Numbered from the stretch's first letter, positions 10,645 to 30,271 are shown. The stretch: 64,000 bases of DNA from an uncultured Gammaproteobacteria bacterium (GCA_965231005.1 OZ246405.1:610709-674708), one strand, 5' to 3'. The notes: a model not told the origin generated them from the letters alone. Program-made: numbers and translations.

Positions 10645-10648
10645 TTGC

Positions 10649-11416: not shown

Positions 11417-11418
11417 AA

Positions 11419-13538: not shown

Positions 13539-13865
13539 ATGTCGAAAAATCAAACTCCTTTTCTTGAAGAATTTATCATAAATGTTCTCGAAGAAAACGG
13601 CATTAAAGATTTAACTCAAGAACAAAAGAATGTATACATTCCAGAATTTTCTTTGCGTGTGTATAGAAGAATGGGGGACACGCTTATTTCAGAATTGGAC
13701 GACAAACAACTTGATCAACTTTCAGATTTACTCAGCGATCCAAAAGCAACGCCAGAAACATGGTATCAGTTTTGGCAAGCAAGCATTGATGATTTTACAA
13801 AGCAGTTTATGAATGTCCTTATGGAATTCAGATCTGATGTTAGTTCAGCATTGGTGGCAGCATAG
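13539..13865 (+). CDS. hypothetical acidic protein
   Basis: 108-aa ORF of host-like composition. No recognisable motif. Confidence 0.5.
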   Translation: MSKNQTPFLEEFIINVLEENGIKDLTQEQKNVYIPEFSLRVYRRMGDTLISELDDKQLDQLSDLLSDPKATPETWYQFWQASIDDFTKQFMNVLMEFRSDVSSALVAA

Positions 13866-13869
13866 ATAT

Positions 13870-14067
13870 ATGTCCACAACAGTTCATCCAAAAGATAAAG
13901 ATACTAACAAACGTAATAAACGTTTGAATATTTTGATTGATGAATTACACAAAGAATTACGAGCAGTCCAAAAAGATGCGATTAGTCTCAGAATGAGTGC
14001 ACAAAAAGTTGTAGACAAGCAAAACATGAAGCACGTATTAGAGAAATTATTAGACAATGGTTCATAG
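13870..14067 (+). CDS. small coiled-coil hypothetical protein
   Basis: Start chosen at ATG 13870 (MSTTVHPKDKDTNKRNKRLNILIDELHKELRAVQKD...). The ORF-track start at 13813 would overlap the previous gene. Confidence 0.4.
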   Translation: MSTTVHPKDKDTNKRNKRLNILIDELHKELRAVQKDAISLRMSAQKVVDKQNMKHVLEKLLDNGS

Positions 14068-14083
14068 AATCATTCTTTTAACT

Positions 14084-17000
14084 ATGAGTCCAGATGCAAA
14101 CAATGTAGTCGAGTTATTTCCTGAAAATGAATATGGTCCTGATCGAGGACCTGTTAGTGATGAACAAAAAGAAGCCAATCGTAAGGCAAAAGGTGAGCTT
14201 GGTGATATTTTGAGAAAACTAGAAGATCTCCAATCATTGCGCGATAAAGTTGAAACAACACTTATTGAAGATGTTGAAGCACTTATTCAGCATATTAATA
14301 ATAAGGAATATCACGATGAAGTTGTTGTTCAAGTAAAAGAACTTCGAGAAAAACTCGACGAAATTAATAAAAAAATGGAAGGGGTTTCAAAGTCGATTGA
14401 AACACGAGAAGTGCGAAAGCAACGAGAGAGTTTTGAGTTTACAGTGTCAGATGTTCTTGATGTCGTCGGAAGAGATAAGCTGCGAAATATTATGGTTCAT
14501 TTTCCTGATATGAATGCAGGCGAGCGGCAGCAGGTGTTTACAGGACTTTTTGATCACCTGGATGAAGAACAATCCAAAAATTTAAATAGAGTAAGAAGAA
14601 AAAAAGCGTTCGAGGTGTTTGAACCTTTTTTTCAAACTGCAAAACAAAAAAAAGCATTGGACGAAGCAAAGCGCGCACCAAATGATCAAGTGAGAGTGAA
14701 ACTATTTGAAGCAGCAGGGCTTATTGAAGATGAGACTGACAGAGAAAACGTGCTTCATACACTTTCAGAAATTTCTTTTTCTGATGATGACAATAAAGCA
14801 TTTATTAAAACATGGAAAGATAATATGGCCTTGCAAGCGCTTGATTCTGTTGAGTTTTATGAATATGGTGCTGCAGAGCAAAAAGTATTAGAACTTGCAG
14901 CTATAGAGGCAAAAAAAGGAAAAAAGAAAAAGAAATATAAACAAACCAGTCTAAAACAAAAGTTTGTAAATCTTGGAAAAGGAATAAAAAATTTGGCAGT
15001 TGCAGCTGGACAGCATGTTAAAAAAGAGTGGTGGGCTATGGCTCCAGCTGCGACATTGGGTCTTGTTGCAAGACACGCTGCATTGTCAACAACTCCTGAT
15101 TTTTATGCAAAGGCACTTGAATTAACAGGGGATGAATCTCAGTCTGCATTTTTAGCAGCTGGTGGTGCAGCAGCACTTGGGACATATGCACTTGCAGAAC
15201 ATGGGATTCGAGCATTGAAAACTCGTCTTTCCGTAAAGCCTGACAAAGCATTTGCAGAAGTTTCTGGTTTGGCAAAAGACATGTACGTCTCTGATCAGAA
15301 AAAGGGTGGAGAATGGGTCCTTGCAGGACATATTAGTCATATATTGCAACATGGAGGAAAAGAAGGACAGCAAACACATGAACGGCATGTAGAAGTCCTC
15401 AAAGTAATTGCAAAAGAATTGAGAAAAAATGGAGAAAAAGTTGAAGCAAATAGTGAGTTTATGAAAGCAGCACTACTTGCTATTGATGTAAAGGATAGAA
15501 AACGTGGTGGACAGTCAATTCTTTCAGAAAAATACCAGTCTCTTGGATTTATTCGTCGGACTATTGCAGAGGTTCGCGATCAATTTTATACAAAAAAGTG
15601 GAAAGACATTGGTGTTGGTGGTTCTGCGTTACAATGGATGTCCGGTGCTGCATTACATACATTACACAAAGGCTTGATTGGTGGAACAATTGCATGGCCA
15701 ATGCAGCGACCAGAAATTTTTGGTTTGTTTAGTGAGCGATTGGCAGCACGCTTTGGTGCAGCTGCAGTACCTGGCTGGTTACAAGAATTAGCAACAAAAA
15801 GAGGGGAACAAAAAGAAGATAAATGGGAAATTGAGAGAAAACGTCTTGAAAAAGCAGTAAGTCCTGAAGCATATGGAAAATTAACTTTATATAAAGCAAC
15901 AAAAGTTTCAGAAGATCAATTGTTAGATATTCAAAGAGAAATCACAGAATTGAATTATTACATTAGCACCTGGAGTGATGTAAGCTCTCTCTCATCAGAT
16001 GGGAATAAATTAAAGCGTGCTGGAAGAAAAATTACAACCAATGTGCGTAAACAATTTCAAAGTGATTTGCTCGATGTGTGGCCACGGTATAAAACTGCTG
16101 CACTTGGTTTGCATCAAGAATATGAACGACTATATGAAGAAAAAAGACAGGAACTGATTGAAAAACAGTTAGCAAAAGTTTCCAAAAGTTTGTCAGAGGC
16201 AGGCAAAACAAAGCAAAGAGAAAAAATGCAAGAAGCCTTGCCGGAAAAATTGAAGAAACGAGAGAAAAAGAGAAATAAGAATATTCCGAAAAAGACATTT
16301 GACATGAAATTGCCAGATGAAAAAACACCAACAGAGCGATTGTTAGGAAATTCAAAAGTTGAGGTTGCTGATAGAAGAAAAACATTAGTACAAGGGTTGA
16401 AAATGGGAATGCTTGCTGCAGCATTTGGAAAGGCATTTGATATGGCACGAGTTCATTTTCCACATATTTTTGATAGACCACCAGAAGTCATTCCGCATGG
16501 CGCGTTTGCAGGTTGGGATGAAGATCCATTTATTGATCATGATCGGTATGACCAATATGGAAATGAAATTTTTCCAGACGATGCGTATCCGTCACAAGGA
16601 GAAGAAGCATCTCCGCCTGCTGAAACACCACAAGAACCAACTGTTCCAAAAAGAGATAGGACAAAAGAAGAAATTCGACGTCTTGCAGGTTTGGGTGGTC
16701 GTTCTGGTCGAGTTGAAGATATTCCAGTGCAGGGCGAAGACGCACTCGTGACAGAAAAAGACGAAGTTGCAAAAGGAACAGGACTTGATTCAAGTAAGGA
16801 TGGAAGTGCTGCACTCATTGGTGAACCAAAAGAACCAACATGGGAAGAAAAGATTGCAGAGCGTGGAAGTCCTGCAGAATCACTTTCAAAAACAGAACAG
16901 TACATGAAATATTTGATGAGAGAAGAACCTAAAAAATATTCAAAAGCAGATTTTAAATTATTTCAACACATGCAATCTATTTTGGAAAAACAAAATGAAT

Positions 17001-17332
17001 TTGTTGGAATTCGAGGAGTTCAATTGGATTCGTATCTCAGAGGAAAGGGGATAGATATGTCACTTCCTGAGGTGAGAGAACAATTTGAAAAAGTAGTCAC
17101 ACAGCACTATGATACTGTTCAAACATTTGAAAAGGGGATTATGCGTGGAAATACTATGAATACGCTAGAGAAGAAAATGAGAGAAATTATGCTTGGTTCA
17201 GAAGCTCTTAGCACAGATACTGATTTGTCTCGTTTTACTGGTTGGTTTGAAAGGGAAGTCCTTCCTCTATTCAAAAAGGCTGTTCATGCTGCTGAAGTCC
17301 GAAAGAGTAAGGCTGCTTTTCCACTAGAATAA
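14084..17332 (+). CDS. large (about 1080 aa) coiled-coil/membrane-associated hypothetical protein
   Basis: Long ORF with charged Lys/Glu-rich coiled-coil stretches and central hydrophobic segments (WWAMAPAATLGLVARHAALS, FLAAGGAAALGTYALAEHGI). No NTPase or enzymatic motif was recognised. The start at 14084 or 14057 is ambiguous. Confidence 0.65.
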   Translation: MSPDANNVVELFPENEYGPDRGPVSDEQKEANRKAKGELGDILRKLEDLQSLRDKVETTLIEDVEALIQHINNKEYHDEVVVQVKELREKLDEINKKMEGVSKSIETREVRKQRESFEFTVSDVLDVVGRDKLRNIMVHFPDMNAGERQQVFTGLFDHLDEEQSKNLNRVRRKKAFEVFEPFFQTAKQKKALDEAKRAPNDQVRVKLFEAAGLIEDETDRENVLHTLSEISFSDDDNKAFIKTWKDNMALQALDSVEFYEYGAAEQKVLELAAIEAKKGKKKKKYKQTSLKQKFVNLGKGIKNLAVAAGQHVKKEWWAMAPAATLGLVARHAALSTTPDFYAKALELTGDESQSAFLAAGGAAALGTYALAEHGIRALKTRLSVKPDKAFAEVSGLAKDMYVSDQKKGGEWVLAGHISHILQHGGKEGQQTHERHVEVLKVIAKELRKNGEKVEANSEFMKAALLAIDVKDRKRGGQSILSEKYQSLGFIRRTIAEVRDQFYTKKWKDIGVGGSALQWMSGAALHTLHKGLIGGTIAWPMQRPEIFGLFSERLAARFGAAAVPGWLQELATKRGEQKEDKWEIERKRLEKAVSPEAYGKLTLYKATKVSEDQLLDIQREITELNYYISTWSDVSSLSSDGNKLKRAGRKITTNVRKQFQSDLLDVWPRYKTAALGLHQEYERLYEEKRQELIEKQLAKVSKSLSEAGKTKQREKMQEALPEKLKKREKKRNKNIPKKTFDMKLPDEKTPTERLLGNSKVEVADRRKTLVQGLKMGMLAAAFGKAFDMARVHFPHIFDRPPEVIPHGAFAGWDEDPFIDHDRYDQYGNEIFPDDAYPSQGEEASPPAETPQEPTVPKRDRTKEEIRRLAGLGGRSGRVEDIPVQGEDALVTEKDEVAKGTGLDSSKDGSAALIGEPKEPTWEEKIAERGSPAESLSKTEQYMKYLMREEPKKYSKADFKLFQHMQSILEKQNEFVGIRGVQLDSYLRGKGIDMSLPEVREQFEKVVTQHYDTVQTFEKGIMRGNTMNTLEKKMREIMLGSEALSTDTDLSRFTGWFEREVLPLFKKAVHAAEVRKSKAAFPLE

Positions 17333-17539
17333 AAAATTAGCCCTTTGACTCGTCACTTCGTTCCTCGCTAAGGACAAGCAAAAAACAAAGAACAAAAAAC
17401 AAGTATTTTAATTGGTATTATTCTTGAAAAAAATTACTAAAATGGCTTAAATAAGTCATTTTTTTCATTTCTTTATGTTTCTTACCTTTTTACTTTTTAG
17501 CATTTTCGCTTTTTTGCATTTTTAGTGATTGCAAAGTAC

Positions 17540-17568
17540 TTGACAAAATGGTAAAAATATGGTACAGT
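17540..17568 (+). promoter_or_regulatory. sigma70-type promoter (TTGACA-N17-TGgTACAGT) of the first G+C-rich operon
   Basis: TTGACA at 17540-17545 and TACAGT at 17563-17568, with a preceding TG. The 34-nt block 17537-17570 is 32/34 identical to 21721-21754. Confidence 0.65.
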
Positions 17569-17791
17569 TTGCTGTTTACAGTGCCCATATTGTGTATGAG
17601 CAGCATTTGTTGTGATCTCTTAGATTGTGACAGTTGCCAAGCAATATTTTTTCGCTGAAGTAAGCTAAAAAGTGCTGTAAAAAAATGCACATTACAAATA
17701 CATGATGCACCTATGTGTATTGGATTAGTCAATCAATGGATATTCTTTTTGCTGTCTTTTGATTGACTAACCCAATCAAGGAGGTGCAGTC

Positions 17792-19882
17792 ATGTCACCA
17801 GATCAGAAAAAACCTGATGGTGGTGCACATGGTAGTGCACCGCCGAAACGATCAACACTCGAACTTCATGCTGACAAGATCGTCAGCTTGGTCCAACAAG
17901 ACGGGCCAGAGGAGAACCCCATGACCGACAAGAAGACTGATACAACAACGCCGGGTCATGAGGTTCATGATTCGAATTCTGAAACCCCACCCCCGCTGCC
18001 AAGTGTGCTCGACTCGCTTGCTCCTGAGGACATAGCAAGAATAATAAGAGGAGAATCACAACCACTGCGAAGTGAATTGGTGCGATGTCCGAACTGTGGT
18101 GCTGTCTACCCTATGGATCAGGGAAAGGTCCAGGGTGGTTCTGAAAAGGATCAACAGTGTGTGTTGTGCCTTCATGAATTCACCCTCGGTGATGACAATG
18201 AAGCACAAGCAACAGCACAGTCTGAAACCCCACCACCAGTGCCTTCTTCGAACGTTCCGGCGGACAATGAGAAAATCCAATGTCCGAACTGCAAAACCAC
18301 ATTTCGGTCCATTGAAATCCTGCTTTGGGATCGCAATTACAAGTACGTCGTCTGCAGCCACGGATTCACCATCGATAACGACACTGAAGCACAAGCAACA
18401 GCACAGTCTGAAACCCCACCCCCACCCCCACTTCCGCTTCTCATTGGGGACAATGCCCCAGGTGGGAAGAACGTGACTTGCCCAAACTGCGATAAGGTCT
18501 ATTCACTGGATCCAGCTGACTTTGTAGGTGGTTTCCCGAACGTCTTTCAGTGCGCCCTATGCAATCATTGCTTCACTATCGATGATGAAACTGACGCACA
18601 GGATGACACACCACCTGCAATTCCGACCGCGCAGCAGCGTGCAGACAGAACAGGACTGACTGAGCCGTACAAGCCACTCGCCGACATCAAAGATCCAGAT
18701 GCTGATACGTCCACGATTCGTGAAACCATGCCAAGTCACCCGGGCCAAGCTCGTCGCGCTGAAAGCGATCACTACACGCAGGATGAACTTCCTCGCGTGG
18801 AAGATGAACGTGAAACACGGCAAGACCTTCCTGTTGTCACTGGCGATGATCAAGACACCAAGCCTGACATGGACGTTGTCAAAGCCGAAGACCTCGATGA
18901 AGACGATGCTGCTGAACTGGAAAAGGATGATGGCAAGGAAGCTGAAGAGCTGCCCCCGCCGATTTCAAGTCCCATGTTCAGTCCGGAACTGCGCAAACCA
19001 AACCCTGGTTTTCAGCTGCCTCCTCATCTCGAAGAGGTCGTTCGACTCTCTGCTGCTTCAACTCCCGATTCTCTTGCTTCCGGCGATGACGATCCATTCG
19101 GCGACGGCGGAGATCCCTTTGCTGGCCCAGGCACGAATCCCTTTGCTGTTGACGCAGATGATCCCTTCGGTGCTGAAGTTCCGTTCGGTCCAGGAGATGA
19201 TCTTGGGATGAAGGACGAAGACTACGGTGGTCCGAATGATTCTGTCGACGATGGTGATGAATTGCCTCCTGTCATGCCGGCTGATTCCAGTAAGGCGGCT
19301 CCCAAGCCGTCGCTGATTACTGGTTCCAGACCAAGGTTTCGTCCGACTGGACCTGTGCCTTCGGTTCACGATCAAGACGACAAAAGTGGCCCCCCGCCTC
19401 CTCGTCGTCAAGATCATCGAAAGACAATCCGAGTTCCACGTCATCGGCCGACTGCTCGTCCAGTGCCACCACCACCTCCTGGCCCGGCTCCCATTCGAAC
19501 GCCGACGCCTAGTGGTGGTTCACCCATTCCTGCATCTGCACCTGTTTCTACTCCGCCTCCGGCTGCGAGTACAACAGGACCGTCTGCTGCACCAACCCAG
19601 GCTGCTGCGGCTCCGCCCGCACAGTCACAACCGCCGGCTCCAACTGGGCCAGTGGTTGGTCCGACGGCATCAAGTGGCAGTGCTACTACACCGGTCAAGA
19701 CCAACAAGACCGTTGTGTGGATCATCGCCATTCTGATTGTTGCATGCCTGGCTCTCAATGCCTTTAGCGTGTGGCAAAGCAGAAACATCAGAAAGAACGT
19801 CATCGCGGTTCTGAAACATCGCGCTGGCATCCAAAAGGTCATTCAGGCTCCAATGCCGAAGACCAAGGGGGAAGAGAAATGA
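17792..19882 (+). CDS. G+C-rich tail-anchored protein with three MJ0042-like zinc-ribbon repeats and a long Pro/Asp-rich disordered region
   Basis: ATG at 17792 is preceded by AAGGAGGTG. There are three CPNC...(C/H)xxC units (aa 99-270). Long acidic and Pro-rich low-complexity stretches follow. A single C-terminal TM helix is VVWIIAILIVACLALNAFSVW. The stop overlaps the next start (ATGA at 19879-19882). Confidence 0.75.
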   Translation: MSPDQKKPDGGAHGSAPPKRSTLELHADKIVSLVQQDGPEENPMTDKKTDTTTPGHEVHDSNSETPPPLPSVLDSLAPEDIARIIRGESQPLRSELVRCPNCGAVYPMDQGKVQGGSEKDQQCVLCLHEFTLGDDNEAQATAQSETPPPVPSSNVPADNEKIQCPNCKTTFRSIEILLWDRNYKYVVCSHGFTIDNDTEAQATAQSETPPPPPLPLLIGDNAPGGKNVTCPNCDKVYSLDPADFVGGFPNVFQCALCNHCFTIDDETDAQDDTPPAIPTAQQRADRTGLTEPYKPLADIKDPDADTSTIRETMPSHPGQARRAESDHYTQDELPRVEDERETRQDLPVVTGDDQDTKPDMDVVKAEDLDEDDAAELEKDDGKEAEELPPPISSPMFSPELRKPNPGFQLPPHLEEVVRLSAASTPDSLASGDDDPFGDGGDPFAGPGTNPFAVDADDPFGAEVPFGPGDDLGMKDEDYGGPNDSVDDGDELPPVMPADSSKAAPKPSLITGSRPRFRPTGPVPSVHDQDDKSGPPPPRRQDHRKTIRVPRHRPTARPVPPPPPGPAPIRTPTPSGGSPIPASAPVSTPPPAASTTGPSAAPTQAAAAPPAQSQPPAPTGPVVGPTASSGSATTPVKTNKTVVWIIAILIVACLALNAFSVWQSRNIRKNVIAVLKHRAGIQKVIQAPMPKTKGEEK

Positions 19883-21558
19883 ATACGTTTATCAAGGTGC
19901 TACTCGCCATTCTCATCGGGGTTGTGGTCGCTGTGTCCGGCTACTTCGCATGGGAAACCATGAACACGAACAAGGCGCTCCTCGCTGAACTGAACAAGAC
20001 CGACAACGGTGCCCAGGAGGACACCAAGGTCAAGCCGGCGCCGAAGAAGTCGGCTGTCAAGAAAGCTGACAAGGCTTCCACGTCCCAGGCCAAGACGGCC
20101 GGCGACAAGAACGACCCCAAGAAGGTCGAGGAAGCTGCGAAGGCTGCCGAAGCCAAGAAGAAGGCCGAGGCCGAAGCTGCTGCCAAGGCTGCTGAAGCGA
20201 AGAAGAAGGCTGACGAAGCTCGCAACGACTGGGATGAAATCAACTCCCGTGGCGACGACCAACTCAGAGCTGAGAAGTTCGACGAAGCGTTCAAGACCTT
20301 CAAATCCTTGATCGGACACGAGCATCAGAATCATGGACTGGCTTACTACAACATCGCCTGCCTGTTCTCGGTGCAGTCTGTGTCAGACAAGCTCAAGGGC
20401 AAGAAGAAGGCGATTCGCAAGAGCAAGAAGCAAGCCCTCCACTACCTGGCTCAGGCCTGGGTAGCCGGCTACGACGACCTCGAATGGATGGAGAAAGACG
20501 AGGATCTCGATTCGATCCGCAAGACCCGCGGCTACAAAGAGATCAAGCGTCTGGCAGTGGAAAAGGGACTGGTTCGGCTCCCTGCGCCGGCCACCGAAGA
20601 CGTCGCCAAGAAGGCCAAGGATGAGCAGAAGGAACCCACGCCCAAGCTGACCGGCATCCACGCCCTGCGTGCCATGCCGATCAAGGGAGTTGCCGATTCT
20701 GACGAAGCCAGCAAGGCTGACAAGGACGCCAAGCGCATCGCCAACGCCAACGCCAAGAAGGTCAAGGGCAAGAAGGTTCGCAAAGGCAGCCGCGGCATCT
20801 CGTTCCTGGCCAAGGCTCGAGCCGAAGCCAAGCGGATGTACGCCAAGCTCCACAAGGACCAGAAGGCTCGTCGTGCAGCGCTCAACCGTGCGATCGCCCG
20901 ACTCAAGCGTGGCTACAAGCGCAAGAGCGATCTTGACAAGCAGGACGTTGACGACGAGATCGCAGAGCTCAAGCGAAAGGAGCAGGAACAGTCCGACGAC
21001 GAGGATCGGAAAGCCAAGGAAGAGGCCGAAAGGATGCTCGCCGACGGCAAGACCCAAGACGAGGTCAAGGCTATGTACGATGCTCTGGAGCGCAAGCAAC
21101 AGGCTCGTCGTGCAGCGCTCCTCAGCAAGATCGCGGACGAGCAAAGGCAGGCACGACAGCAGCGTCAGGATGATGCAGTCGACCTTCGCGATGAGATCGC
21201 CAAGCTGCGCGAAGCCGACAAAAAGGCTGACACGCAGTCCGCGGCAGCTGCCAAGGATCACGTGCAAGCCTTGTTCGACAAAGCGCAAGCCGCGACCAAC
21301 CGCGCCAACGCAAAGCGCGCGCGTCAACAGCGTCAGCGTGCGGCAGCGCCCTCGCGTCCGAGCTCGCCGCCCAGCCGTCCGGCTTCGGGTGGTTCGTCCA
21401 GCCTCGCACATGCGCCTGCGGCAGTTTCCAGCTGTCCGTATGGTGGAGACGAGGCCAACTGCGTCAAGAAGACGGTCGCGTACTTGACCAAGTTCGGTAC
21501 GCCCCTGGCCGATGCCAAGGGGAGTGCCAAGGCCAAGTGCAGCGCGCGCTGTCTGTAG
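19879..21558 (+). CDS. G+C-rich N-terminally anchored Lys/Ala-rich coiled-coil protein with a TPR-like segment and a C-terminal 4-Cys module
   Basis: Start ATG 19879 (MNTFIKVLLAILIGVVVAVSGYF is a TM anchor). A TPR-like block is YYNIACLFS...ALHYLAQAWVAGYDDLEWMEKDEDLDSIR. The C-terminus is CPYGGDEANCVKKTVAYLTKFGTPLADAKGSAKAKCSARCL. Confidence 0.72.
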   Translation: MNTFIKVLLAILIGVVVAVSGYFAWETMNTNKALLAELNKTDNGAQEDTKVKPAPKKSAVKKADKASTSQAKTAGDKNDPKKVEEAAKAAEAKKKAEAEAAAKAAEAKKKADEARNDWDEINSRGDDQLRAEKFDEAFKTFKSLIGHEHQNHGLAYYNIACLFSVQSVSDKLKGKKKAIRKSKKQALHYLAQAWVAGYDDLEWMEKDEDLDSIRKTRGYKEIKRLAVEKGLVRLPAPATEDVAKKAKDEQKEPTPKLTGIHALRAMPIKGVADSDEASKADKDAKRIANANAKKVKGKKVRKGSRGISFLAKARAEAKRMYAKLHKDQKARRAALNRAIARLKRGYKRKSDLDKQDVDDEIAELKRKEQEQSDDEDRKAKEEAERMLADGKTQDEVKAMYDALERKQQARRAALLSKIADEQRQARQQRQDDAVDLRDEIAKLREADKKADTQSAAAAKDHVQALFDKAQAATNRANAKRARQQRQRAAAPSRPSSPPSRPASGGSSSLAHAPAAVSSCPYGGDEANCVKKTVAYLTKFGTPLADAKGSAKAKCSARCL

Positions 21559-21578
21559 TCTGATCTGGTGAGAACCTG

Positions 21579-21660
21579 GCTTCCCGGTGCTCGTACGTTT
21601 ATTCGTACTTGCATCGGGAAGCCTCCTCACTTTCTTCTTTTTCTTGAAAAGAGGGGAAAG
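21579..21660 (+). terminator. 3' cassette module: G+C-rich hairpin followed by a CT/AG hairpin
   Basis: GGCTTCCCGGTGC...GCATCGGGAAGCC spans 21579-21623. CTTTCTTCTTTTTCTTGAAAAGAGGGGAAAG spans 21631-21660. Confidence 0.5.
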
Positions 21661-21723
21661 CAGGGAAAATACCTTATTTAAGCCAAAAAAGATAAGTTTT
21701 TATGGTCTATAAAGCCTAAATAC

Positions 21724-21752
21724 TTGACAAAATGGTCAAAATATGGTATAGT
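21724..21752 (+). promoter_or_regulatory. sigma70-type promoter (TTGACA-N17-TGgTATAGT), near-identical copy of the 17540 promoter
   Basis: TTGACA at 21724-21729 and TATAGT at 21747-21752, with an extended -10 TG. Confidence 0.65.
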
Positions 21753-21943
21753 TTCTGGTCAAAATTGATAAAATATATACCCTTATCTATTGGCGTGCCA
21801 GTGCATAATCCATGCAATATGCAGTGCGCGCGAGTGTGATAAGGTACAGAAAATGTACATCGTACATTCTTTGTGTGTCACACCGCTTTCCAGACGTTTT
21901 AACGTCATCCAACAGGTTCATTACATTACTACATCACTACAAC

Positions 21944-22086
21944 TGTTCGATCGGTAAACAAGTTCATAATATTTGTGTACTGCTTTACCGGTCGAACATT
22001 TCACATCGCCTTTCTGACCGGGGGCACAGTTAATTCCAAGGTACGTTACCAAGGAACAAATTGACTGCGCCTGGTTTTCTGGGCGA
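21944..22086 (+). promoter_or_regulatory. conserved structured 5' leader element, copy 1 (143 nt)
   Basis: It aligns along its length with 24885-25027. The long stem is GTTCGATCGGTAAA / TTTACCGGTCGAAC. Further hairpins have conserved stems and variable loops. It lies 27 nt upstream of the ATG at 22113. Confidence 0.6.
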
Positions 22087-22112
22087 CGTGAAACAACAGA
22101 AGGAGGTGCGCA

Positions 22113-23402
22113 ATGGCGTACGCCGTTCGAAAAACCCGATCCGGGGGTGCCGGACAATACGTTTCAGTTTTTTCCGACCGTGCTGCGGTTCTCCGAAAAA
22201 TCGCGCGAGGGATGATCCGCAAGGGTGCGTTCATTCGCGTGGTTCCGGACACGGCTGCTACCAACGATGGCGAGAAGGCCGCAGTCAAGGCTGATCTGGA
22301 TAACGCGGATTTCGTGCTCATCGAGAACCATCCGCATTTCGCTGGCATCAACTTCCCGGCGCCTGCTGACGCTTCGGCTGCTGCGACTGCGGATGCTGCG
22401 GCCACCCGTGCGAATGCCAATGCTGCTGCGGCCAATGTGACCGTTGCGGAGGCTACTGCTGCTCAGGCTCAAACCGAAGCCGACGCTGCTAACGCTCGTG
22501 CCAACGCTGCTGATGCCGCCACTGCTCAGGCCAACGCCGAGGCTACTGCTGCTCAGGCTCGTGTCGACGTTGCCAACGCTGCTGCTGCTCAGGCCAACGC
22601 CGAGGCTACTGCTGCTCAGGCTGCTGGGGATGCTGACGCTCAAGTTGCTGCTGCAGAGGCTGTTGCGGAGGCTGCTGCTGCTCAGGCCGATGCTGCTCAG
22701 GCACATGCCGACGCGGTTCAGGCTGCTGCGGATGCTGCTCAGGCTGCTGCGGATGCTGCTGACGCTGCTACCCAGGCTGGTGCTGCTGCCGGTCAGGCTC
22801 TGATCGCTACCAGTCAAGCTCGGGATGCTGCTGCTGAGGCTGAGGCTGAGGCGCTCGAGGCACAGGCCGATGCGGACGATGCTGCTGCCTTTGCTCAGGC
22901 TCAGGCCGACGAGCGGGCCAATCGCCGTTCGGTTCGGTTCGTCGCGTGGCTGCGTCGCAACTGGAAGAAGGTTCTGCTGGCTCTGCTGGTTCTCCTCCTT
23001 CTCGGTTGCGTGTGGTTCTTCTGGAGCAACATCAAGGCCCTGGTCACGGGGGGTGGTGGTTCGCCGCCGCCTTCGGTGGTGAACCCGCCGACCCCACCGA
23101 CGCCGCCCGTTCCGACGCCGCCCGTTCCGCCGCCGCCGGCTGCGACTCCGGTCGTTCCGCCGCCGACGGTGACGCCTCCGCCACCGCCCGCGACTCCGCC
23201 GGTTTCGCCGACGGTCACGCCTCCGCCGACCCCGCCGACTTCGGGGGGCACGGCAGCGCCGACTGGACAGCCTGGCTGTCCGTTCGGTGTGGGGTACACG
23301 GACTGTTACACCAAGACGGTGGCCTACCTGGTCAGCCATGGTGTGGCGACTTCGGACGCGCAGGACAAGGCGCGCGAGAAGTGCGGACCGCGTTGCAGGT
23401 GA
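22113..23402 (+). CDS. G+C-rich Ala-rich repeat protein with a central TM helix, a Pro/Thr-rich linker and a C-terminal 4-Cys module
   Basis: ATG is preceded by AAGGAGGTG. Repeats of the AAAQANAEATAAQA type occur. TM helix WKKVLLALLVLLLLGCVWFFW. A PPTPPTPPVPTPPVPPPP linker follows. The C-terminus is CPFGVGYTDCYTKTVAYLVSHGVATSDAQDKAREKCGPRCR. Confidence 0.72.
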   Translation: MAYAVRKTRSGGAGQYVSVFSDRAAVLRKIARGMIRKGAFIRVVPDTAATNDGEKAAVKADLDNADFVLIENHPHFAGINFPAPADASAAATADAAATRANANAAAANVTVAEATAAQAQTEADAANARANAADAATAQANAEATAAQARVDVANAAAAQANAEATAAQAAGDADAQVAAAEAVAEAAAAQADAAQAHADAVQAAADAAQAAADAADAATQAGAAAGQALIATSQARDAAAEAEAEALEAQADADDAAAFAQAQADERANRRSVRFVAWLRRNWKKVLLALLVLLLLGCVWFFWSNIKALVTGGGGSPPPSVVNPPTPPTPPVPTPPVPPPPAATPVVPPPTVTPPPPPATPPVSPTVTPPPTPPTSGGTAAPTGQPGCPFGVGYTDCYTKTVAYLVSHGVATSDAQDKAREKCGPRCR

Positions 23403-23410
23403 TGTAGCCT

Positions 23411-23500
23411 GTTGGAGGGAAGCCCGCTACCGGCGCATGCATTCGTGTGTGTGTCCGGTAGCCCTCCAACCGCTTTCTTTTATAAAAGAGAAAGAGGTTG
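23411..23500 (+). terminator. 3' cassette module: G+C-rich hairpin plus an overlapping CT/AG hairpin
   Basis: GTTGGAGGG (23411-23419) pairs with CCCTCCAAC (23462-23470). CCAACCGCTTTCTTTT...AAAAGAGAAAGAGGTTGG (23465-23500) reuses the 3' arm, so the two structures are mutually exclusive. Confidence 0.5.
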
Positions 23501-23824
23501 GGGGAATACAAAATTAGAAATTGGAAATTAGGGATTAAGTGTATTGACATATTGAGTAATAGAGAAAAGAAATTTTCTTTAGTACTCAGGGTGTCATGTA
23601 GACATTATTGTAAAATTACAATGTGTCTCGTGTCCTGATTAGACAGGTTCATTATAATTTAGTTGAAGAATAACTATCTGGTGGGTAAAAAGATAATATA
23701 CATATGTTACTTTTTTTCTCACCAGATAGTGGCACGTGCCGCTTGTTTCTTCGTCGCCCTTGGGGCATTTCACAAATGGCCCCATCGGTGAGGAGGGGCA
23801 AGGCAACAACAACAGGAGGACGCG

Positions 23825-24724
23825 ATGAACATCCGTCTCGTTTCGTTCATGATCGTCGCATCGGTGACGGTCGGTTTCATTTCCATCAACTCATTCGCGC
23901 AGGCACCGGCCGACTACCCAGCCGTTCGCGACGATGCGCACAAGGGTGCTTCGCTCGCCGAGTCCAACGCCAAGCGCCTGACCGCCCTGGAGAAGCGGAT
24001 CAAGCGGCTCAAGCGCGCCAAGGCTGCGGCCAAGGCCAAGCACACGGCCAACCCGACCCCCGCCAACAACGTCGCTCTGAAGGCCGCGGTCCGCGCGCTC
24101 GACGAGGCCAAGAAGGCAGGTCTGTCCATGTGCGCCCTGAAGACTGGCGAGGATTTCCGGCACTGCATCGACGTCGTGGAAGGCAAGGTGTTCGAGGTGG
24201 AGAAGGACTCCATCCGGATGGCCGCGCTGCTCGCAGTCGGCTGCATCGTGAAGGAGAACAAGTCCACAGATCCTTCCAAGGGTTCGAAAAAGGGCGCATC
24301 CATCACGACCACCGAGCTCGTCTGCGACAAGGACAAGGCCAAGAAGGCGCCGCGCTGCATCCGGTTCAAGCGCTTCAGCAAGCACGCGCACACCTACTTC
24401 GACGTCGGCGGTGACAACTGCAAGGAAGAAGACAGCAACCCGCTGCCCAAGAAGCCGGCGACTCCGCCCAAGCCCAAGGCCGAACCGTGGTCCAAGGGCA
24501 AGCGTTTGCTGGCCAGCGCTGGCATGTGCCTGCTGGCCGGTGGTGTGCTCGCTGTTCCTGGTTACGTCATCGGCGACGCCATCGAGGGCGGTCACTGGGA
24601 GACCAATCCGGAGACCGGCAACGACGACTGGTATGCGCCCAAGGGTCCGCTCGGTGCTGGCATCGGCGGTCTGACCGGCTGCCTCAGCGCGTTCGCGGGC
24701 ACATGGAGTGCGACGAGCGAGTAG
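23825..24724 (+). CDS. G+C-rich secreted/membrane protein, function unknown
   Basis: ATG is preceded by AGGAGG. Signal peptide MNIRLVSFMIVASVTVGFISINSFAQA. Lys/Ala-rich helix. Several Cys residues. C-terminal hydrophobic Gly-rich segments (LLASAGMCLLAGGVLAVPGYVIG; GAGIGGLTGCLSAFAG). Confidence 0.68.
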   Translation: MNIRLVSFMIVASVTVGFISINSFAQAPADYPAVRDDAHKGASLAESNAKRLTALEKRIKRLKRAKAAAKAKHTANPTPANNVALKAAVRALDEAKKAGLSMCALKTGEDFRHCIDVVEGKVFEVEKDSIRMAALLAVGCIVKENKSTDPSKGSKKGASITTTELVCDKDKAKKAPRCIRFKRFSKHAHTYFDVGGDNCKEEDSNPLPKKPATPPKPKAEPWSKGKRLLASAGMCLLAGGVLAVPGYVIGDAIEGGHWETNPETGNDDWYAPKGPLGAGIGGLTGCLSAFAGTWSATSE

Positions 24725-24748
24725 CCTTTCTTCAACTGCTGAATCTGT

Positions 24749-24826
24749 CGGGGGTTGGTAGCATGTTCATTCATGTCTGTCAACCCCCGTCGGAATATCT
24801 TTCTCTTTGTAAAAAGGGAGAGATGA
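24749..24826 (+). terminator. 3' cassette module: G+C-rich hairpin followed by a CT/AG hairpin
   Basis: CGGGGGTTG (24749-24757) pairs with CAACCCCCG (24781-24789). ATCTTTCTCTTTGTAAAAAGGGAGAGAT spans about 24797-24826. Confidence 0.5.
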
Positions 24827-24884
24827 ACGATTATTGTTCATTACAATTGAGAAACTACTACAGAAACATCTTGAATACCTTTTG

Positions 24885-25027
24885 TGTTCGATCGGTAAAC
24901 AAGTACATAACATTTGTGTACTGCTTTACCGGTCGGACATTTCCACATCGCCTTTTTGACCGGGGGCACAGTTAATCCGTGGCGTGTTGCCGCGGACCAA
25001 ATTGACTGCGCCTGAGAAATTGGGCGA
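24885..25027 (+). promoter_or_regulatory. conserved structured 5' leader element, copy 2 (143 nt)
   Basis: Homologous to 21944-22086. The stem substitution A to G keeps pairing as G-U. One hairpin is replaced by CCGTGGC-GTGTT-GCCGCGG. It lies 44 nt upstream of the ATG at 25072. Confidence 0.6.
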
Positions 25028-25071
25028 TTGTGGAATGATTCGGGCGAGACCCGAGAAAAGAGAGGTAACTC

Positions 25072-28000
25072 ATGAACAGCAAGCTCAACACGATTTCCGT
25101 TTGTTTCGTGGCGCTGATGATCGTTTTCGGGTGCAGCCCGGACGCGAGCTACAAGCCCAACGACCCCAAGAACCCCAACCCGGCCCGCAAGGCCGATGCC
25201 AACAACAGCGACACCAGCAGCGCGGATGCGGGTTCGAGCGCGGATACCGGTCAGCCGACCGATCCGTGCGCCGATCCCAAGTTCTGCAACGATGGCAAGG
25301 TCTGCACGGCCGACACCTGCAAGGACGGCAAGTGCAAGCACACCATCGACGCGACGCTCTGTGATGACGGCAACCCCTGCACACATGACCTGTGTGACGA
25401 CCTGGGGATCTGTGTGAACAAGGCTCACGAAGGTTCGTGCCAGGACGGGAATGCCTGTACTGTGGGTGATCATTGCAAGAATGGCACCTGCCAGTCGGGA
25501 AAGAACATGCCCTGTCCCAACGAGAACTCGTGTGTCATCGCAACCTGCAACCCGAAAGAAGGCAAGTGCAACTACGAGCCCAAGAGCGGTGACTGCAACG
25601 ACGGCAACAAGTGCACGGTTGGCGATTTCTGCATCAACCAGAAGTGCAAGAGCGGTTTCAAGAAGTTGGACTGTGATGACAAGAACGTGTGCACGACTGA
25701 CAGCTGCAATCCAGAAGACGGTTGTGTTCACAAGCCGATCGACCTTCCCTGCAGCGACAACAGCTCGTGTACCATCTCGGATAAGTGCAAGGACGGAAAA
25801 TGCGTGGGCCAGGTTGTCAACTGCGACGACAAGAACCCGTGCACGACCGACTCGTGCGATCCGGCGGCGCCCCCGGGCAAGGCATGCAAGCACGTGAACA
25901 ACACCAGCGAGTGCGACGACGGCAACAAGTGCACGTCCGGCGACGTTTGCCAGGATGGTCAGTGTAAGAAGGGAACCACGTCGGTCGATTGCGACGACGG
26001 GAACCCGTGCACTACCAATTCCTGCGACGCCAAGGTCGGCTGCCAGAAGCTCAACAACAACAACTCGTGCGACGACGGCAACAACTGCACCATCAATGAC
26101 AAGTGCTTTAACGGCAAGTGCAACTCCACTACCAAGAAGTGTGGCGACAGCAACAAGTGCGTCACCAACACGTGCGACCAGGCAACTGGCGCGTGTGTGA
26201 AAAAGGAGCTGTGCGACGACGGCAAGGCCTGCACCGAAAACACGTGCGACATCAACACCGGCAAGTGCGAAAACCCTGACAAGAAGTGCGACGACGGCAA
26301 GGCCTGCACCAAGGATAGCTGCAACACCACCACGGGCAAGTGCGAGTACGAGATGATCGTTGGTGCGAACTGCTTCTGCAAGTTCGACTCCAACTGTGAC
26401 GACGGAAACGAGTGCACTGTCAGCGCATGCGATAAGGCGACTGGCAAATGCGCGCTCGCGAAGAAGTACAGCGGGACCTCGTGTGACGACGGGAACCCGT
26501 GCACCACCTCGGACAAGTGCGACCCCAAGACCGGCAAGTGCTCGTCGGCAAAGGCCACGGCCTGCGACGACGGGAACCCCTGCACGGACGACTCCTGCGA
26601 CCCCACGGTCGTTGGCGGTTGTGTGGCGGTGAAGAACAACAAGCTGTGTGACGACGGTGACGCGTGCACCAAGGGTGATATCTGCCTGGACGGCGCGTGT
26701 AACCCCGGCAAGGCCCCGGTCTGCGACGACGGCAACATCTGCACGGATGACAGCTGTGACTCGAAGCTCGGATGCAAGAACACGGCCAACTCGGCCAGCT
26801 GCTCGGATGGGAGCGCCTGCACCTCAAACGACAAGTGCGAGGGCGGGAGCTGCAAGAGCGTTGCGGTGAAATGCGACGACTCCAACCCCTGTACCGACGA
26901 TAGCTGCGACGCGAAGGTCGGCTGCAAGTACGCCAAGAACACCAAGCCGTGTAACGACGGTGACGAGTGTACCATCAGCGAGGTGTGCAAAGACGGCAAG
27001 TGTGGTTCTGGCAAGGCCAAGTCGTGCGACGACAACAAGAAGTGTACCATCGACTCGTGCGACAAGGACAAGGGCTGCCAGCACAAGCAGATTTCCTCGG
27101 CGACCTGCTGCGCTTCGGACGCTGAGTGCGACGATAAAAAGCCGTGCACGGTGGACAAGTGCGATCCGAAGGAAGGTTGCAAGAACACCAAGAAGCTCTG
27201 CTCGGACAACAACCAGTGCACCGACGACGTGTGTGATCCCCAGTCTGGAGATTGCAAGCACACGAAGTTCAGTGGACCGGCCTGCGACGACGGCAACAGT
27301 TGTACCAAATCCGAGAAGTGCGAAAAGGGCAAGTGCGAAGCTGGCTTTACCATCAAGTGCAACGACAACAAACCCTGCACCAAGGATACGTGCGACACCA
27401 AGGGCGGATGCGTCTTCACCAAGACCGTGGATCCCTGCGACGACGGGGACGCGTGTACGAATGGAGACAAGTGCGCCAATGGCGAGTGCGTGTCTGGCAA
27501 GCAGATCGTCTGCGACGACAACAAGGTCTGCACGACCGACAGCTGTGACTCCAAGAAGGGGTGCGTGTTCGCGAACAATTCGGATGCCTGTACGGACGGA
27601 AACGCCTGTACACCGAATGACGTCTGCAAGGACGGCAAGTGCTCGTCGCAGCCTGAGAACTGTGACGACGCGAACGCGTGTACCAACGACAGTTGTGACA
27701 AGAGCAAGGGCTGCAAGCACATCAACAACACCAAGGTCTGCAACGACGGCAACAAGTGTACGGACAACGGAGTCTGCAGTGGCGGCGCCTGCAAGCCGGG
27801 CAAAGCCATCAACTGCGACGACGGCAAGAAGTGCACGACGGATAGCTGTGACCCGACCACGGGCAAGTGCAAGAACGTGGCGCTGGTGTGCGATGACGAC
27901 GCCTGTACGGATGGCGATGGCAAGTGTGACGAGAGCACGGGCAAGTGTGCAGTGGGTCTTCCCAAGAACTGCACTGACACCGACGTGTGTACCAAGAATT

Positions 28001-28593
28001 TCTGCTCGGAAGGAACCTGCAAGGTCTCTCCGAACTGCGATGACGGGAACGCATGCACGGCTGATAGCTGTGACCCAAAGAAGCCCGAGAAGGATCAGTG
28101 TTCGCACGTCCCGATCTCGGGTTGCAAGTCGGTCGAGGTCAAGCTCTCCGTGGTTTTTTCTGAGATGTTCAAGATGGAAGCCGCACCCAAGGGTGGCAAC
28201 TACGTCCGGTTCTTCGTCAAGAAGTGCGAGGCCAAGGCTGCTGACGGCTCGTCCGTCATGTTGCTCAAGCCTGGCTCCTTCTACGGAGGCGCTGAGATCA
28301 AGAACAGCTCGAAGCTCGAGTACACCAATCCTGCAAAGGTCCAGGACTTCGTGCAGATCCCGAAGAATGCCTGCTGCATCAACATCGTAGGGTACCAAAG
28401 CAGTAAGATCTCCAATCCTTACGGGGACTCGAAGATCTGGGCTTTCAGTACGACTCCCAATACCAAGACCCACAACATGGAGCCGGTCCTCACGACCAGC
28501 AATGGACTGACGTACAAGTTCACGTTGAAAGACGTCCATGACAACGGTGTGGGGGGATACGACGCGTGCAACAGCGAAGTCATCTCCAAGTAG
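25072..28593 (+). CDS. G+C-rich giant Cys-rich repeat lipoprotein (CDDGNxCTxDxC-type repeats, roughly forty copies) with a distinct C-terminal domain
   Basis: The N-terminus MNSKLNTISVCFVALMIVFGC is a probable lipoprotein signal. From about aa 66 to 985 there are ~24-aa units in two alternating flavours: CDDxNxCTxDxCDxxxGCxH and CxDGNxCTxxDxCxxGxC. The last ~180 aa are non-repetitive. Confidence 0.85.
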   Translation: MNSKLNTISVCFVALMIVFGCSPDASYKPNDPKNPNPARKADANNSDTSSADAGSSADTGQPTDPCADPKFCNDGKVCTADTCKDGKCKHTIDATLCDDGNPCTHDLCDDLGICVNKAHEGSCQDGNACTVGDHCKNGTCQSGKNMPCPNENSCVIATCNPKEGKCNYEPKSGDCNDGNKCTVGDFCINQKCKSGFKKLDCDDKNVCTTDSCNPEDGCVHKPIDLPCSDNSSCTISDKCKDGKCVGQVVNCDDKNPCTTDSCDPAAPPGKACKHVNNTSECDDGNKCTSGDVCQDGQCKKGTTSVDCDDGNPCTTNSCDAKVGCQKLNNNNSCDDGNNCTINDKCFNGKCNSTTKKCGDSNKCVTNTCDQATGACVKKELCDDGKACTENTCDINTGKCENPDKKCDDGKACTKDSCNTTTGKCEYEMIVGANCFCKFDSNCDDGNECTVSACDKATGKCALAKKYSGTSCDDGNPCTTSDKCDPKTGKCSSAKATACDDGNPCTDDSCDPTVVGGCVAVKNNKLCDDGDACTKGDICLDGACNPGKAPVCDDGNICTDDSCDSKLGCKNTANSASCSDGSACTSNDKCEGGSCKSVAVKCDDSNPCTDDSCDAKVGCKYAKNTKPCNDGDECTISEVCKDGKCGSGKAKSCDDNKKCTIDSCDKDKGCQHKQISSATCCASDAECDDKKPCTVDKCDPKEGCKNTKKLCSDNNQCTDDVCDPQSGDCKHTKFSGPACDDGNSCTKSEKCEKGKCEAGFTIKCNDNKPCTKDTCDTKGGCVFTKTVDPCDDGDACTNGDKCANGECVSGKQIVCDDNKVCTTDSCDSKKGCVFANNSDACTDGNACTPNDVCKDGKCSSQPENCDDANACTNDSCDKSKGCKHINNTKVCNDGNKCTDNGVCSGGACKPGKAINCDDGKKCTTDSCDPTTGKCKNVALVCDDDACTDGDGKCDESTGKCAVGLPKNCTDTDVCTKNFCSEGTCKVSPNCDDGNACTADSCDPKKPEKDQCSHVPISGCKSVEVKLSVVFSEMFKMEAAPKGGNYVRFFVKKCEAKAADGSSVMLLKPGSFYGGAEIKNSSKLEYTNPAKVQDFVQIPKNACCINIVGYQSSKISNPYGDSKIWAFSTTPNTKTHNMEPVLTTSNGLTYKFTLKDVHDNGVGGYDACNSEVISK

Positions 28594-28640
28594 TTCTCAA
28601 GAAAATGATCACTCCCTCCTGCGCAATGTGATCTGCCGTG

Positions 28641-28712
28641 GACGGGCTCGAGCCTGAAACTCGAGTCCGTCCCGGCCGCGCAACTCCGAATATGATTCAC
28701 GTCTATTCGGAG
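28641..28712 (+). terminator. two G+C-rich hairpins closing the island
   Basis: GACGGGCTCGAG-CCTGAAA-CTCGAGTCCGTC spans 28641-28671. CTCCGAATA-...-TATTCGGAG spans 28684-28712. Confidence 0.45.
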
Positions 28713-28774
28713 CTCCCCAAGGTTCATTTTTCCTCAGAAAAGTGGACACTTGTAAGAGTTAAACATAGGTACAG

Positions 28775-28802
28775 GAAACAAGATATATATCTTGTTTTTT
28801 GT
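28775..28802 (+). terminator. rho-independent terminator (host style)
   Basis: AAACAAGATATATATCTTGTTTTTTG: an AT-rich perfect stem followed by a T-run. Confidence 0.7.
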
Positions 28803-28831
28803 TTGAATAATAGTGTTTTTTCAAGTATACT
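28803..28831 (+). promoter_or_regulatory. sigma70-type promoter (TTGAAT-N17-TATACT), probably giving a leaderless or near-leaderless mRNA
   Basis: The -35 is at 28803-28808 and the -10 at 28826-28831. The ATG at 28838 lies only 7 nt after the -10 box. Confidence 0.55.
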
Positions 28832-28837
28832 GTGAAT

Positions 28838-30271
28838 ATGAAATCGCCAAATTTCTTATCTTATTTTTCACACAACCAGCTTAAAAAAACACATGTACTT
28901 GGTGTCTCTTTTATTATTATAATAATGACAGCCGCCCTTTTACTATTTTGGGATATATATCCTCTAGCAATTATATTCCTCATAGGATTAGTAGGAATAT
29001 CCACATTTGCTCTAAAACCAGAGTGGGGATTGTACAGTGTTCTCTTTCTTGGACTATTTCATGGATGGGTCATAGATTTTTCTACATATCAGAGCGTCAA
29101 ACATATTCCATATCTTCCTCAGATCAATGCTCCTTTGGTTGATTTCTTTGCGATTGTTTTATTCATTGGAGTTTTTCTTTTATATTTATTTCAATTTCAA
29201 AAATTAGCTATTTTGAAACGTCTAAGACACATCAAAACAGGAATAGTTATATATATTCTTTTTCTTATCACAGCACTTGCAGCTGTTTTTTTTGCATTTA
29301 ATAATTTTTTTACACCAAGTATAAAATATTTTATGCGACCGCTGGTGTTTGTGTTTGTTTTGTATTGGCTCTTGCCAATTATTCTTATTAGAACAAAAAA
29401 ACAATTTTCATCTGTAATGAAACTATGGTTCTGGACTGGTATTGGCATTGCAATATTTGGTTTGATATCTTTATTTGTTCTTGGGCAAACAGGATGGATT
29501 CGTGTTGTTCCATTTGGCATAAAAGGGTTTGCCCCACTTGGATACAATCATAATCAACTTGCAGAAGTATTAATTTCTTTATTTCCTGCTGGACTATTTC
29601 TTTTCTTACGAAGTTTTTCAAAAGAAGAAAAAAGATTGTATGGTTTTGGAACATTTTTTATTATTATCATTGCACTCCTAACACTTTCTCGGGCTGCTTG
29701 GGCTGCAGTACTTGTACAAGTAGGCTTTCTCTTTTGGTTTTTCCGTTCAGCAGTGCGTCCATTCATGTATAAATTTCAAAAGATAACCACGCTATTATTG
29801 ATAGCAATTATTCCAGCTATTCTTTACATGAGTGTTTTTCTTGGATCGTCCATTGTAAAAAGTTCAACAAATGCCCGAGTGGAAGCAACAAAAATCGCAT
29901 TATTTTATACTGTTCGTTCTCCAGTCGTTGGATATGGTCCTGGTATGTTTGGCTATGTTATGGATGACACGTTTTTGTACACGCTCGAATTTGGAGAGTC
30001 GCTTGATGCACATGGGTTTATTCAAAAAGTCATGTTAGAAGAAGGATTTCTTGGCTTGCTGTTCTTTGTTGGTTTTTTGGGTTGGATATTGTGGTATATA
30101 TATCAGGCAAGAGAACATGGCATGCAAAGAGATCTTGTTGAGGTATTATTTGTCATGGCAATAGGAGCAATTATTTTTCAACTATTTAATACGTCCTATT
30201 TTAATTCTGTAATGTGGTTGCCACTTGGGGTGGCCACTGCTGGAACGCTTCTTTTAAAAAATGATTCCTAG
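28838..30271 (+). CDS. O-antigen ligase/polymerase (Wzy_C) family membrane protein
   Basis: About 10-12 TM helices. It carries a Wzy_C-type loop motif (ALLTLSRAAWAAVLVQ). Confidence 0.75.
   Translation: MKSPNFLSYFSHNQLKKTHVLGVSFIIIIMTAALLLFWDIYPLAIIFLIGLVGISTFALKPEWGLYSVLFLGLFHGWVIDFSTYQSVKHIPYLPQINAPLVDFFAIVLFIGVFLLYLFQFQKLAILKRLRHIKTGIVIYILFLITALAAVFFAFNNFFTPSIKYFMRPLVFVFVLYWLLPIILIRTKKQFSSVMKLWFWTGIGIAIFGLISLFVLGQTGWIRVVPFGIKGFAPLGYNHNQLAEVLISLFPAGLFLFLRSFSKEEKRLYGFGTFFIIIIALLTLSRAAWAAVLVQVGFLFWFFRSAVRPFMYKFQKITTLLLIAIIPAILYMSVFLGSSIVKSSTNARVEATKIALFYTVRSPVVGYGPGMFGYVMDDTFLYTLEFGESLDAHGFIQKVMLEEGFLGLLFFVGFLGWILWYIYQAREHGMQRDLVEVLFVMAIGAIIFQLFNTSYFNSVMWLPLGVATAGTLLLKNDS

Follow-up and report, generated by a model that had tools for sequence, protein, structure and literature searches.

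The leaders of two unrelated genes in a GC-rich island are copies of a single element, which by its sequence is an unclassified, lineage-restricted, structured mRNA leader with no relative in the collections searched. It is read here as a portable, cis-acting 5′-UTR module that works in the sense mRNA and stabilises, insulates or processes the message, a tentative assignment to which we give a probability of roughly 45%. The RNA-level, sense-strand nature of the leader is considerably more secure than any specific function.

The window (the whole 64-kb stretch of DNA that was analysed) has a GC content of about 35% and carries ordinary bacterial genes, including those for PPDK, SmpB, tmRNA and IF3, many glycosyltransferases, and DUF11 and DUF5667 proteins. 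An island of approximately 11 kb (17.6–28.8 kb), composed of five same-strand genes with 55–65% GC, interrupts this background, and a sixth GC-rich gene lies outside it at 4596–5423. GC3 ranges from 0.45 to 0.84 in the GC-rich genes, compared with 0.22–0.27 in the flanking host genes. All GC-rich genes encode predicted membrane or secreted proteins, which are essentially orphans. The island genes are separated by AT-richer spacers with host-type promoters and sense-biased RNA hairpins, and the whole looks like a set of foreign genes fitted with local expression signals.

The gene following copy 1 encodes a 429-residue Ala/Gln- and Pro-rich membrane protein without a Pfam or NCBIfam match, and the gene following copy 2 encodes a 1173-residue lipoprotein made up of Dictyostelium-type Cys repeats (Pfam E 1.5e-92). 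Modules are distributed among the cassettes as a mosaic: cassettes B and C have a promoter in common (17540 and 21724), whereas the leader described here is common to cassettes C and E (genes at 22113 and 25072). A four-Cys C-terminal motif, CP(Y/F)G..C..KTVAYL...G....A..KC..RC, ends two otherwise dissimilar proteins, those of cassettes B2 and C (coding positions 21430–21555 and 23275–23399), and has no homologue in an index of 5.8 billion proteins.

The original prediction that two stretches ahead of unrelated genes are homologous was confirmed. Copy 1 (21944–22073) and copy 2 (24885–25014) share 88.6% identity over 131 nt (blastn, E 6.8e-42), and a 160-column MAFFT alignment of both leaders has a mean column identity of 90%. 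The shared stretch starts at the upstream motif GTTCATTACAWT (21916 and 24836) and ends at the closing stem of the second hairpin, P2 (22093 and 25035). Beyond these ends the copies diverge, and the Shine–Dalgarno (SD) sequences, start regions and genes are unrelated. The duplicated segment thus begins at the motif and stops exactly at the base of P2, which makes the copied unit the structural unit. Copy 2 contains approximately 20–21 additional nucleotides between the motif and the first hairpin, P1. No third close copy was found in the 64-kb window by a repeat scan or an unfiltered covariance-model search. Assemblies from ENA (L005, L006 and L007) are 99.99–100% identical to the window over 7792–22781 and 23501–24722, with L007 showing 1 mismatch in 12,675 nt. 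As these independent assemblies agree, copy 1 and the left junction between host and island are not assembly artefacts, and an assembly chimera was rejected. Every contig matched by an exact-protein look-up came from the same population (99.99–100% identical), leaving no population variation to use.

Table 1. Coordinates of the leader copies and of associated features in the GC-rich island.
Feature	Position	Strand	Description
Promoter, strong, sigma-70 type	21724–21752	+	TTGACA-17-TATAGT with TG; 190 nt upstream of copy 1
Motif, copy 1 (GTTCATTACATT)	21916–21927	+	-10-like TACATT; 16 nt upstream of P1
P1, copy 1	21944–21998	+	15-bp outer stem, 2×2 loop, 3+5-bp inner stem
P2, copy 1	21999–22093	+	Irregular rod, about 95–97 nt, closed by UUUCACAUCGCC / GGGCGACGUGAAA
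SD and start, 429-aa gene	22101–22115	+	AGGAGG (22101–22106) and ATG (22113); outside the shared element
Motif, middle cassette (GTTCATTATAAT)	23647–23658	+	16 nt before hairpin, as in copy 1
Leader, middle cassette	23673–23806	+	Diverged P1, then small hairpin, then non-homologous second rod
Motif, copy 2 (GTTCATTACAAT)	24836–24847	+	About 21 extra nt before P1
P1, copy 2	24885–24939	+	15-bp outer stem, 9-bp inner stem
P2, copy 2	24940–25035	+	Irregular rod, about 97 nt, closed by UUCCACAUCGCC / GGGCGAUUGUGGAA
SD and start, 1173-aa lipoprotein gene	25060–25074	+	GAGAGG and ATG (25072); predicted paired
3′ trailer, gene preceding copy 1	21570–21670	+	Double hairpin, no U-tract
3′ trailer, 429-aa gene	23408–23505	+	Double hairpin, no U-tract
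3′ trailer, 299-aa gene	24740–24830	+	Double hairpin, no U-tract; directly upstream of copy-2 motif

On the sense strand, each copy is predicted to fold into two rod-like hairpins that abut with no spacer between P1 and P2. P1 has 23–25 predicted pairs and P2 34–35, with small internal loops. The folding energy is -72.4 kcal/mol for copy 1 and -81.0 kcal/mol for copy 2, corresponding to z-scores of -9.7 and -9.6 relative to dinucleotide shuffles, with the single rods contributing -27 to -48 kcal/mol each. The antisense strand folds less well, by 7.8 kcal/mol in copy 1 and 16.6 kcal/mol in copy 2, because six to eight G·U pairs turn into A·C. An outer stem that had been described as 14 bp long exists, with 15 pairs, one of which is a U·G wobble in both copies; the A-to-G substitution in copy 2 preserves pairing as proposed, adding a second wobble. 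In copy 2 the inner AGTACA/TGTACT stem is fully paired; in copy 1 it contains a U·U mismatch. Two other parts of the prediction were not upheld. In place of a local CGCC/GGCG hairpin, the 3′ GGGCGA pairs best with a distant 5′ AUCGCC, closing a 97-nt rod with it, and not with the neighbouring GCGCC. The hairpin thought to have been entirely replaced in copy 2 is the same hairpin, altered by one UA-to-CG double change and one AU-to-GU change; in this apical hairpin an AA/AA internal loop of one copy becomes G-C and U·G pairs in the other. The base of P2 changes in a compensatory manner (UUUCAC/GUGAAA and UUCCAC/GUGGAA), and the sequence of the largest internal loop is not the same in both (GGUUUUC and AGAAAUU). 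A kink-turn in P2 was considered and rejected, the GA motif not being conserved.

The differences between the copies spare the structure. In the RNAalifold consensus no pair is broken by inter-copy differences, which include one double change and three wobble changes. A count that avoids circularity was obtained from the MFE structure of a single copy, as the number of its pairs that the sequence of the other copy breaks. With the structure of copy 1, the 21 substitutions break 4 pairs, compared with 12.1 expected if they were placed at random (P 5e-5), and the same test on the structure of copy 2 gives P 0.017.

A third, diverged version of P1 is found in the leader of the middle cassette, which is the best remaining plus-strand match of the covariance model (21.9 bits). 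When the leaders are aligned by sequence alone (MAFFT), this P1 proves to be a diverged homologue, with 30 of 61 columns invariant and the same pairing register. Across the three leaders, two of them close copies and one diverged, all from one genome, both partners have changed in five pairs of P1, and paired cells make up 94.7%, compared with 25–49% when the partners are slid. By its sequence, P1 is therefore a helix conserved across three leaders of one genome. The second rod of the middle cassette is analogous to P2 and not alignable with it, and the leader as a whole favours the sense strand (-65.6 kcal/mol, compared with -43.0 kcal/mol for the antisense). Within it, a small GC hairpin at 23728–23752, formed by AGUGGCACGUGCCGCU and followed by UGUUUCUU, scores as terminator-like; it shares sequence with the 5′ side of the second rod and could be an attenuator alternative.

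A coding function of the element is unlikely from its sequence. The argument for a non-coding element had been based on one frame-shifting 1-nt indel; there are three such indels, the first two of which cancel after 33 nt, and the conclusion itself stands, as no peptide is conserved in any frame on either strand of both copies. All sense frames contain stops, and the single open antisense frame shifts register between the indels. A leader peptide was accordingly rejected, no frame being conserved between the copies.

The motif GTTCATTAYAWT has three exact matches in the window, each located upstream of a leader hairpin, and the 12-mer ACAGGTTCATTA occurs in identical form at both 21912 and 23643. 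Inspection of the sequence places a weak -35 element, TTAACG, 17 nt upstream of the copy-1 motif, and the -35 regions of the motif are generally poor. If transcription starts approximately 7 nt downstream of TAYAWT, a predicted unpaired 5′ tail of 9–10 nt precedes P1, which is above the tolerance of classical 5′ stabilisers such as that of ompA. The strong promoter upstream of copy 1 is 92% identical to that at 17540–17568. The two lie within a block of approximately 35–37 nt, TACTTGACAAAATGGTNAAAATATGGTAYAGTTT (17534–17570 and 21718–21754), that is likewise 92% identical, and the leaders downstream of the two blocks are unrelated. A decamer, TGGTCAAAAT, occurs twice at 21730–21775 and might be an operator. 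The heptamer GTTCATT has eight sites in the window, six of them within 21.9–28.8 kb, including one at each of the three cassette starts. At 28722–28729, GGTTCATT recurs exactly where the GC-rich island passes into AT-rich host sequence.

The two ribosome-binding sites are predicted to differ in accessibility. Copy 1 leaves its SD and AUG open, with P(unpaired) of 0.47 and 1.0, whereas in copy 2 both are sequestered (P(unpaired) 0.01–0.07). Immediately 5′ of P1, copy 2 has a sequence of its own, UACCUUUU; its SD is predicted to pair with this sequence and its start AUGAAC with GUUCAU of the motif, closing the whole leader as a multi-branch fold. The leader of the first island operon (17700–17797) is predicted to clamp its own SD and AUG: CAUGAUGCACCU pairs with AGGUGCAGUCAUG on either side of an 18-bp hairpin, the start of this first cassette being enclosed in an anti-SD/anti-AUG helix of 13 bp (AUG P(unpaired) 0.00).

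Structured RNA extends well beyond the two leaders. In a 120-nt z-score scan, strong structure appeared in almost all intergenic stretches of the island, mostly in favour of the sense strand, and the 3′ trailers also have a sense-strand folding advantage. The only canonical terminators read from the sequence are at 5497–5520 and 28779–28800. Internal gene boundaries have hairpins without a U-tract, which is compatible with long, processed transcripts. In the host part of the window, a leader of approximately 380 nt (42200–42585) with at least seven hairpins and z-scores down to -6.8 precedes a gene for a 1264-residue orphan; just upstream of it lie a gene for an ECF-type sigma factor (40198–40920) and a DUF5667 gene.

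Several other features of the window were noted. The solitary GC-rich cassette A (4440–5530) encodes a 275-residue orphan at 61% GC and has its own TTGACA-16-TATACT promoter and terminator. Its protein is the only one of the island and cassette families with relatives, having 12 matches among 1.8 billion representatives. One homologue, 40% identical (L014, 7880–8900), is found in a different genome of 1.15 Mb, where it has 55–57% GC against about 42%; it lies behind a near-identical promoter, TTGACAAAATGG...TGCTATATT, and has no related leader. Another is found on a contig of uniformly 60% GC (L008). AT-rich palindromic intergenic repeats built of TAGTTATTAGTTACTAGCTAATAG and TTGCTAATTGTTA units occur at several host sites (3750–3910 and 11480–11640), with an 89% identical copy outside the window (L001, 471–689). 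The tmRNA (8532–8929, minus strand) has an unusually long predicted tag of 25 residues, ANLVNRVKSAIANAFSTPALATAVA, and at its 3′ end the tmRNA runs into the region annotated as the start of the IF3 ORF. Three tandem 204-nt repeats, 77–83% identical, lie at 53697–54308 within a 355-residue ORF (53457–54524).

Searches for relatives of the leader returned none. Against Rfam 15, the whole window gave only tmRNA and tRNA-Asp at the gathering threshold, and at E up to 10 no match in 17000–29500 overlapped either copy. Exact-pattern searches of viral contigs with a leader 20-mer, a 45-nt P1 pattern or the promoter gave 0 matches, and a leader 17-mer gave three, all by chance. The 20-mer had no match in genome contigs; an 18-mer had three in metagenome contigs, all chance on inspection. 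The covariance model rejects all loci matched by the 17-mer and 18-mer. The phage and plasmid collections contained no blastn match to the leader, and the leader is absent from the genomes with cassette-A homologues (L008 and L013–L015). No protein homologue was found for the 299-residue protein or for the C-terminal domain of the 1173-residue protein. Protein-guided searches for related loci yielded none in viral contigs and, with the PPDK protein, none in genome contigs. PHROGs, PADLOC and NCBIfam yielded nothing informative for the island proteins. ORFs of at least 100 residues in the 64-kb window include no transposase, integrase, HUH/Y1 protein, TnpB or reverse transcriptase. A retron ncRNA was rejected for want of a reverse transcriptase, as was a DGR TR/VR pair, in which, moreover, the differences would be adenine-specific, as they are not here.

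The proposed 5′-UTR module would consist of the -10-like motif and two abutting rods (P1 of approximately 25 bp and P2 of approximately 35 bp) situated just upstream of the ribosome-binding site. Recombination would have placed it before at least two unrelated, horizontally acquired GC-rich genes for surface proteins, and a diverged version before a third. Its most probable role would be physical, not sensory, shielding and insulating the 5′ end from 5′-end-dependent decay; alternatively, it may provide a site for RNase III-type processing of dsRNA within a longer transcript, which would start at the strong promoters and end at the sole canonical terminator near 28790. In either role the leader would act jointly with the equally stable double hairpins 3′ of each gene. 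Transcription of the leader, the position of the transcript start and a stabilising or processing function are what we infer from the arrangement. Counted in favour of this module are the stable, sense-biased fold, the substitutions that spare it, and its placement between motif and ribosome-binding site, together with the structured intergenic stretches of the island and the structured leader of the 1264-residue host protein. Sequestration of the SD and AUG in copy 2 is more what one would expect of a regulated leader than of a simple stabiliser.

Both roles have precedents. RNase III sites are known from the early R sites of T7 and from the rnc and pnp leaders. With these the leader shares coaxial dsRNA of more than 20 bp with small internal loops, located between same-strand genes that lack U-tract terminators; P1 and P2 are each predicted to provide the near-continuous duplex of at least 20 bp that RNase III substrates contain, and cleavage of this kind would leave hairpin-protected ends. 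The conserved upstream motif, by contrast, suggests a promoter of its own and not a pure processing site, and no gene for RNase III is visible in the window. Stabilising hairpins in the 5′ UTR are known from ompA of E. coli and aprE of B. subtilis. In the 5′ UTR of the Lactobacillus S-layer gene slpA, a stable stem-loop keeps the transcript stable and leaves the ribosome-binding site exposed (PMC10221546). The slpA leader would be matched here by a stable stem-loop that is predicted to lie close to the 5′ end of a long leader, ahead of a surface-protein gene, and to act in cis at the RNA level. The slpA ribosome-binding site is exposed downstream of the stem-loop, as predicted for copy 1, whereas copy 2 is predicted to hide its own. 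The present leader is also much larger than those of slpA, ompA and aprE (two rods, approximately 150 nt, -72 to -81 kcal/mol), has no sequence similarity to them, and is one module reused before unrelated genes.

The proposal of a cis-regulatory RNA held in that the element is non-coding, structured, on the sense strand and ahead of unrelated genes, and its restriction to this cassette family is plausible from the three leaders of one island; the suggestion of a riboswitch or thermosensor found no support. The consensus fold of two rods has neither a multi-helix junction nor an invariant unpaired core of the riboswitch type, and its large internal loop varies; the shared part contains no terminator, no SD-sequestering segment and no U-tract after P2 that could form an expression platform; the downstream genes are unrelated orphans with no pathway or transport function in common; and Rfam is silent even at E 10. 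A ROSE or fourU thermometer would involve the SD, which here lies outside the shared element, and the rods, at -72 and -81 kcal/mol, exceed by far the stability at which physiological melting would be expected. A leader that senses or binds something, such as a protein, and thereby controls translation or read-through of the cassette genes is on the whole unlikely, despite being a natural reading of a conserved, structured sense RNA, and so is a put-like RNA whose action on RNA polymerase would carry transcription past the hairpins between the cassettes. The multi-branch fold of copy 2, with UACCUUUU on its SD and GUUCAU on its AUGAAC, and the start-clamping helix around the long hairpin of the first cassette would suit regulation of this type, and a local GCGCC/GGGCG hairpin, read from the sequence, might form in competition with the stem that closes P2. 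The open SD and AUG of copy 1 would not. The putL and putR RNAs of phage HK022 too are two adjacent cis-acting stem-loops present in two similar copies after promoters and before unrelated genes; they are, however, approximately 70 nt long with defined loops that contact RNA polymerase, whereas the rods here are longer and dissimilar in sequence.

At the DNA level, the leader could be a strand-specific single-stranded recombination or mobility signal that marks cassette boundaries, with the motif as cleavage or crossover site. We regard this as quite improbable, even though it would explain how unrelated GC-rich genes came to be assembled in a row and accommodates the mosaic of promoter, leader and C-terminal motif among cassettes B, C, E and B2. 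IS200/IS605 elements, PATEs and attC sites have in common with the leader strand-specific imperfect hairpins at cassette boundaries, a short site at a fixed distance, and unrelated genes arrayed in one orientation. TTAC/TTAT within the motif lies 5′ of the hairpin foot at a distance of 19 nt, an arrangement like that of IS608 left ends, and the clustering of GTTCATT at the three cassette starts and at the island end (28722) would suit such a signal. The preference for G·T pairs on one strand would also fit a top-strand ssDNA hairpin and is compatible with an active ssDNA strand. Set against this, the cassette ends are dissimilar, the 3′ hairpins being unlike P1 (17 bits against the leader model), whereas the ends of IS200/IS605 elements resemble each other, and neither these elements nor PATEs can be recognised, the window having no visible Y1 transposase or TnpB. 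Nor are the attributes of integron attC sites (a 3′ hairpin, RYYYAAC ... GTTRRRY and intI) present: GTTCATT misfits the core GTTRRRY, the hairpin is at the 5′ and not the 3′ end of the cassette, the cassettes carry their own promoters, and the window has no integrase. The structure moreover reaches far past a single hairpin, with P1 embedded on the 5′ side of a larger structured UTR that includes P2, trailers and upstream domains; a host-type gene has a leader of comparable structure; and the 64 kb contain no more than two close copies. A segmental duplication or gene conversion that was recent and selectively neutral, with incidental hairpins, would account for two near-identical copies 2.9 kb apart in one genome and none in the collections searched. 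It is very unlikely, given that the substitutions are strongly non-random relative to pairing, that the ends of the duplicated segment coincide with those of the structure, that the diverged third P1 keeps its helix through five double changes, and that the folding z-score is about -9.6. Equally unlikely is a lineage-specific gene-domestication system formed by the leader and the 3′ hairpins, operating either by an unseen strand-specific recombination at GTTCATT or as a new RNA switch controlled by a protein or RNase. If it existed, an ultra-small bacterium with an AT-rich genome would acquire high-GC genes from elsewhere, perhaps from the organism that hosts it, and plug them into a standard chassis of promoter, leader and trailer.

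Represented by two and a half copies in a single genome, the proposed 5′-UTR module is a lead and not a discovery. If the reading is correct, a tiny, AT-rich and probably symbiotic bacterium would express a block of foreign GC-rich surface genes by means of a reusable RNA 'armour' at either end of each message, and the leader would be a compact natural 5′-UTR insulator. This would bear on how streamlined genomes come to express horizontally acquired genes, and on how lineages in which few regulators are known control their genes post-transcriptionally.
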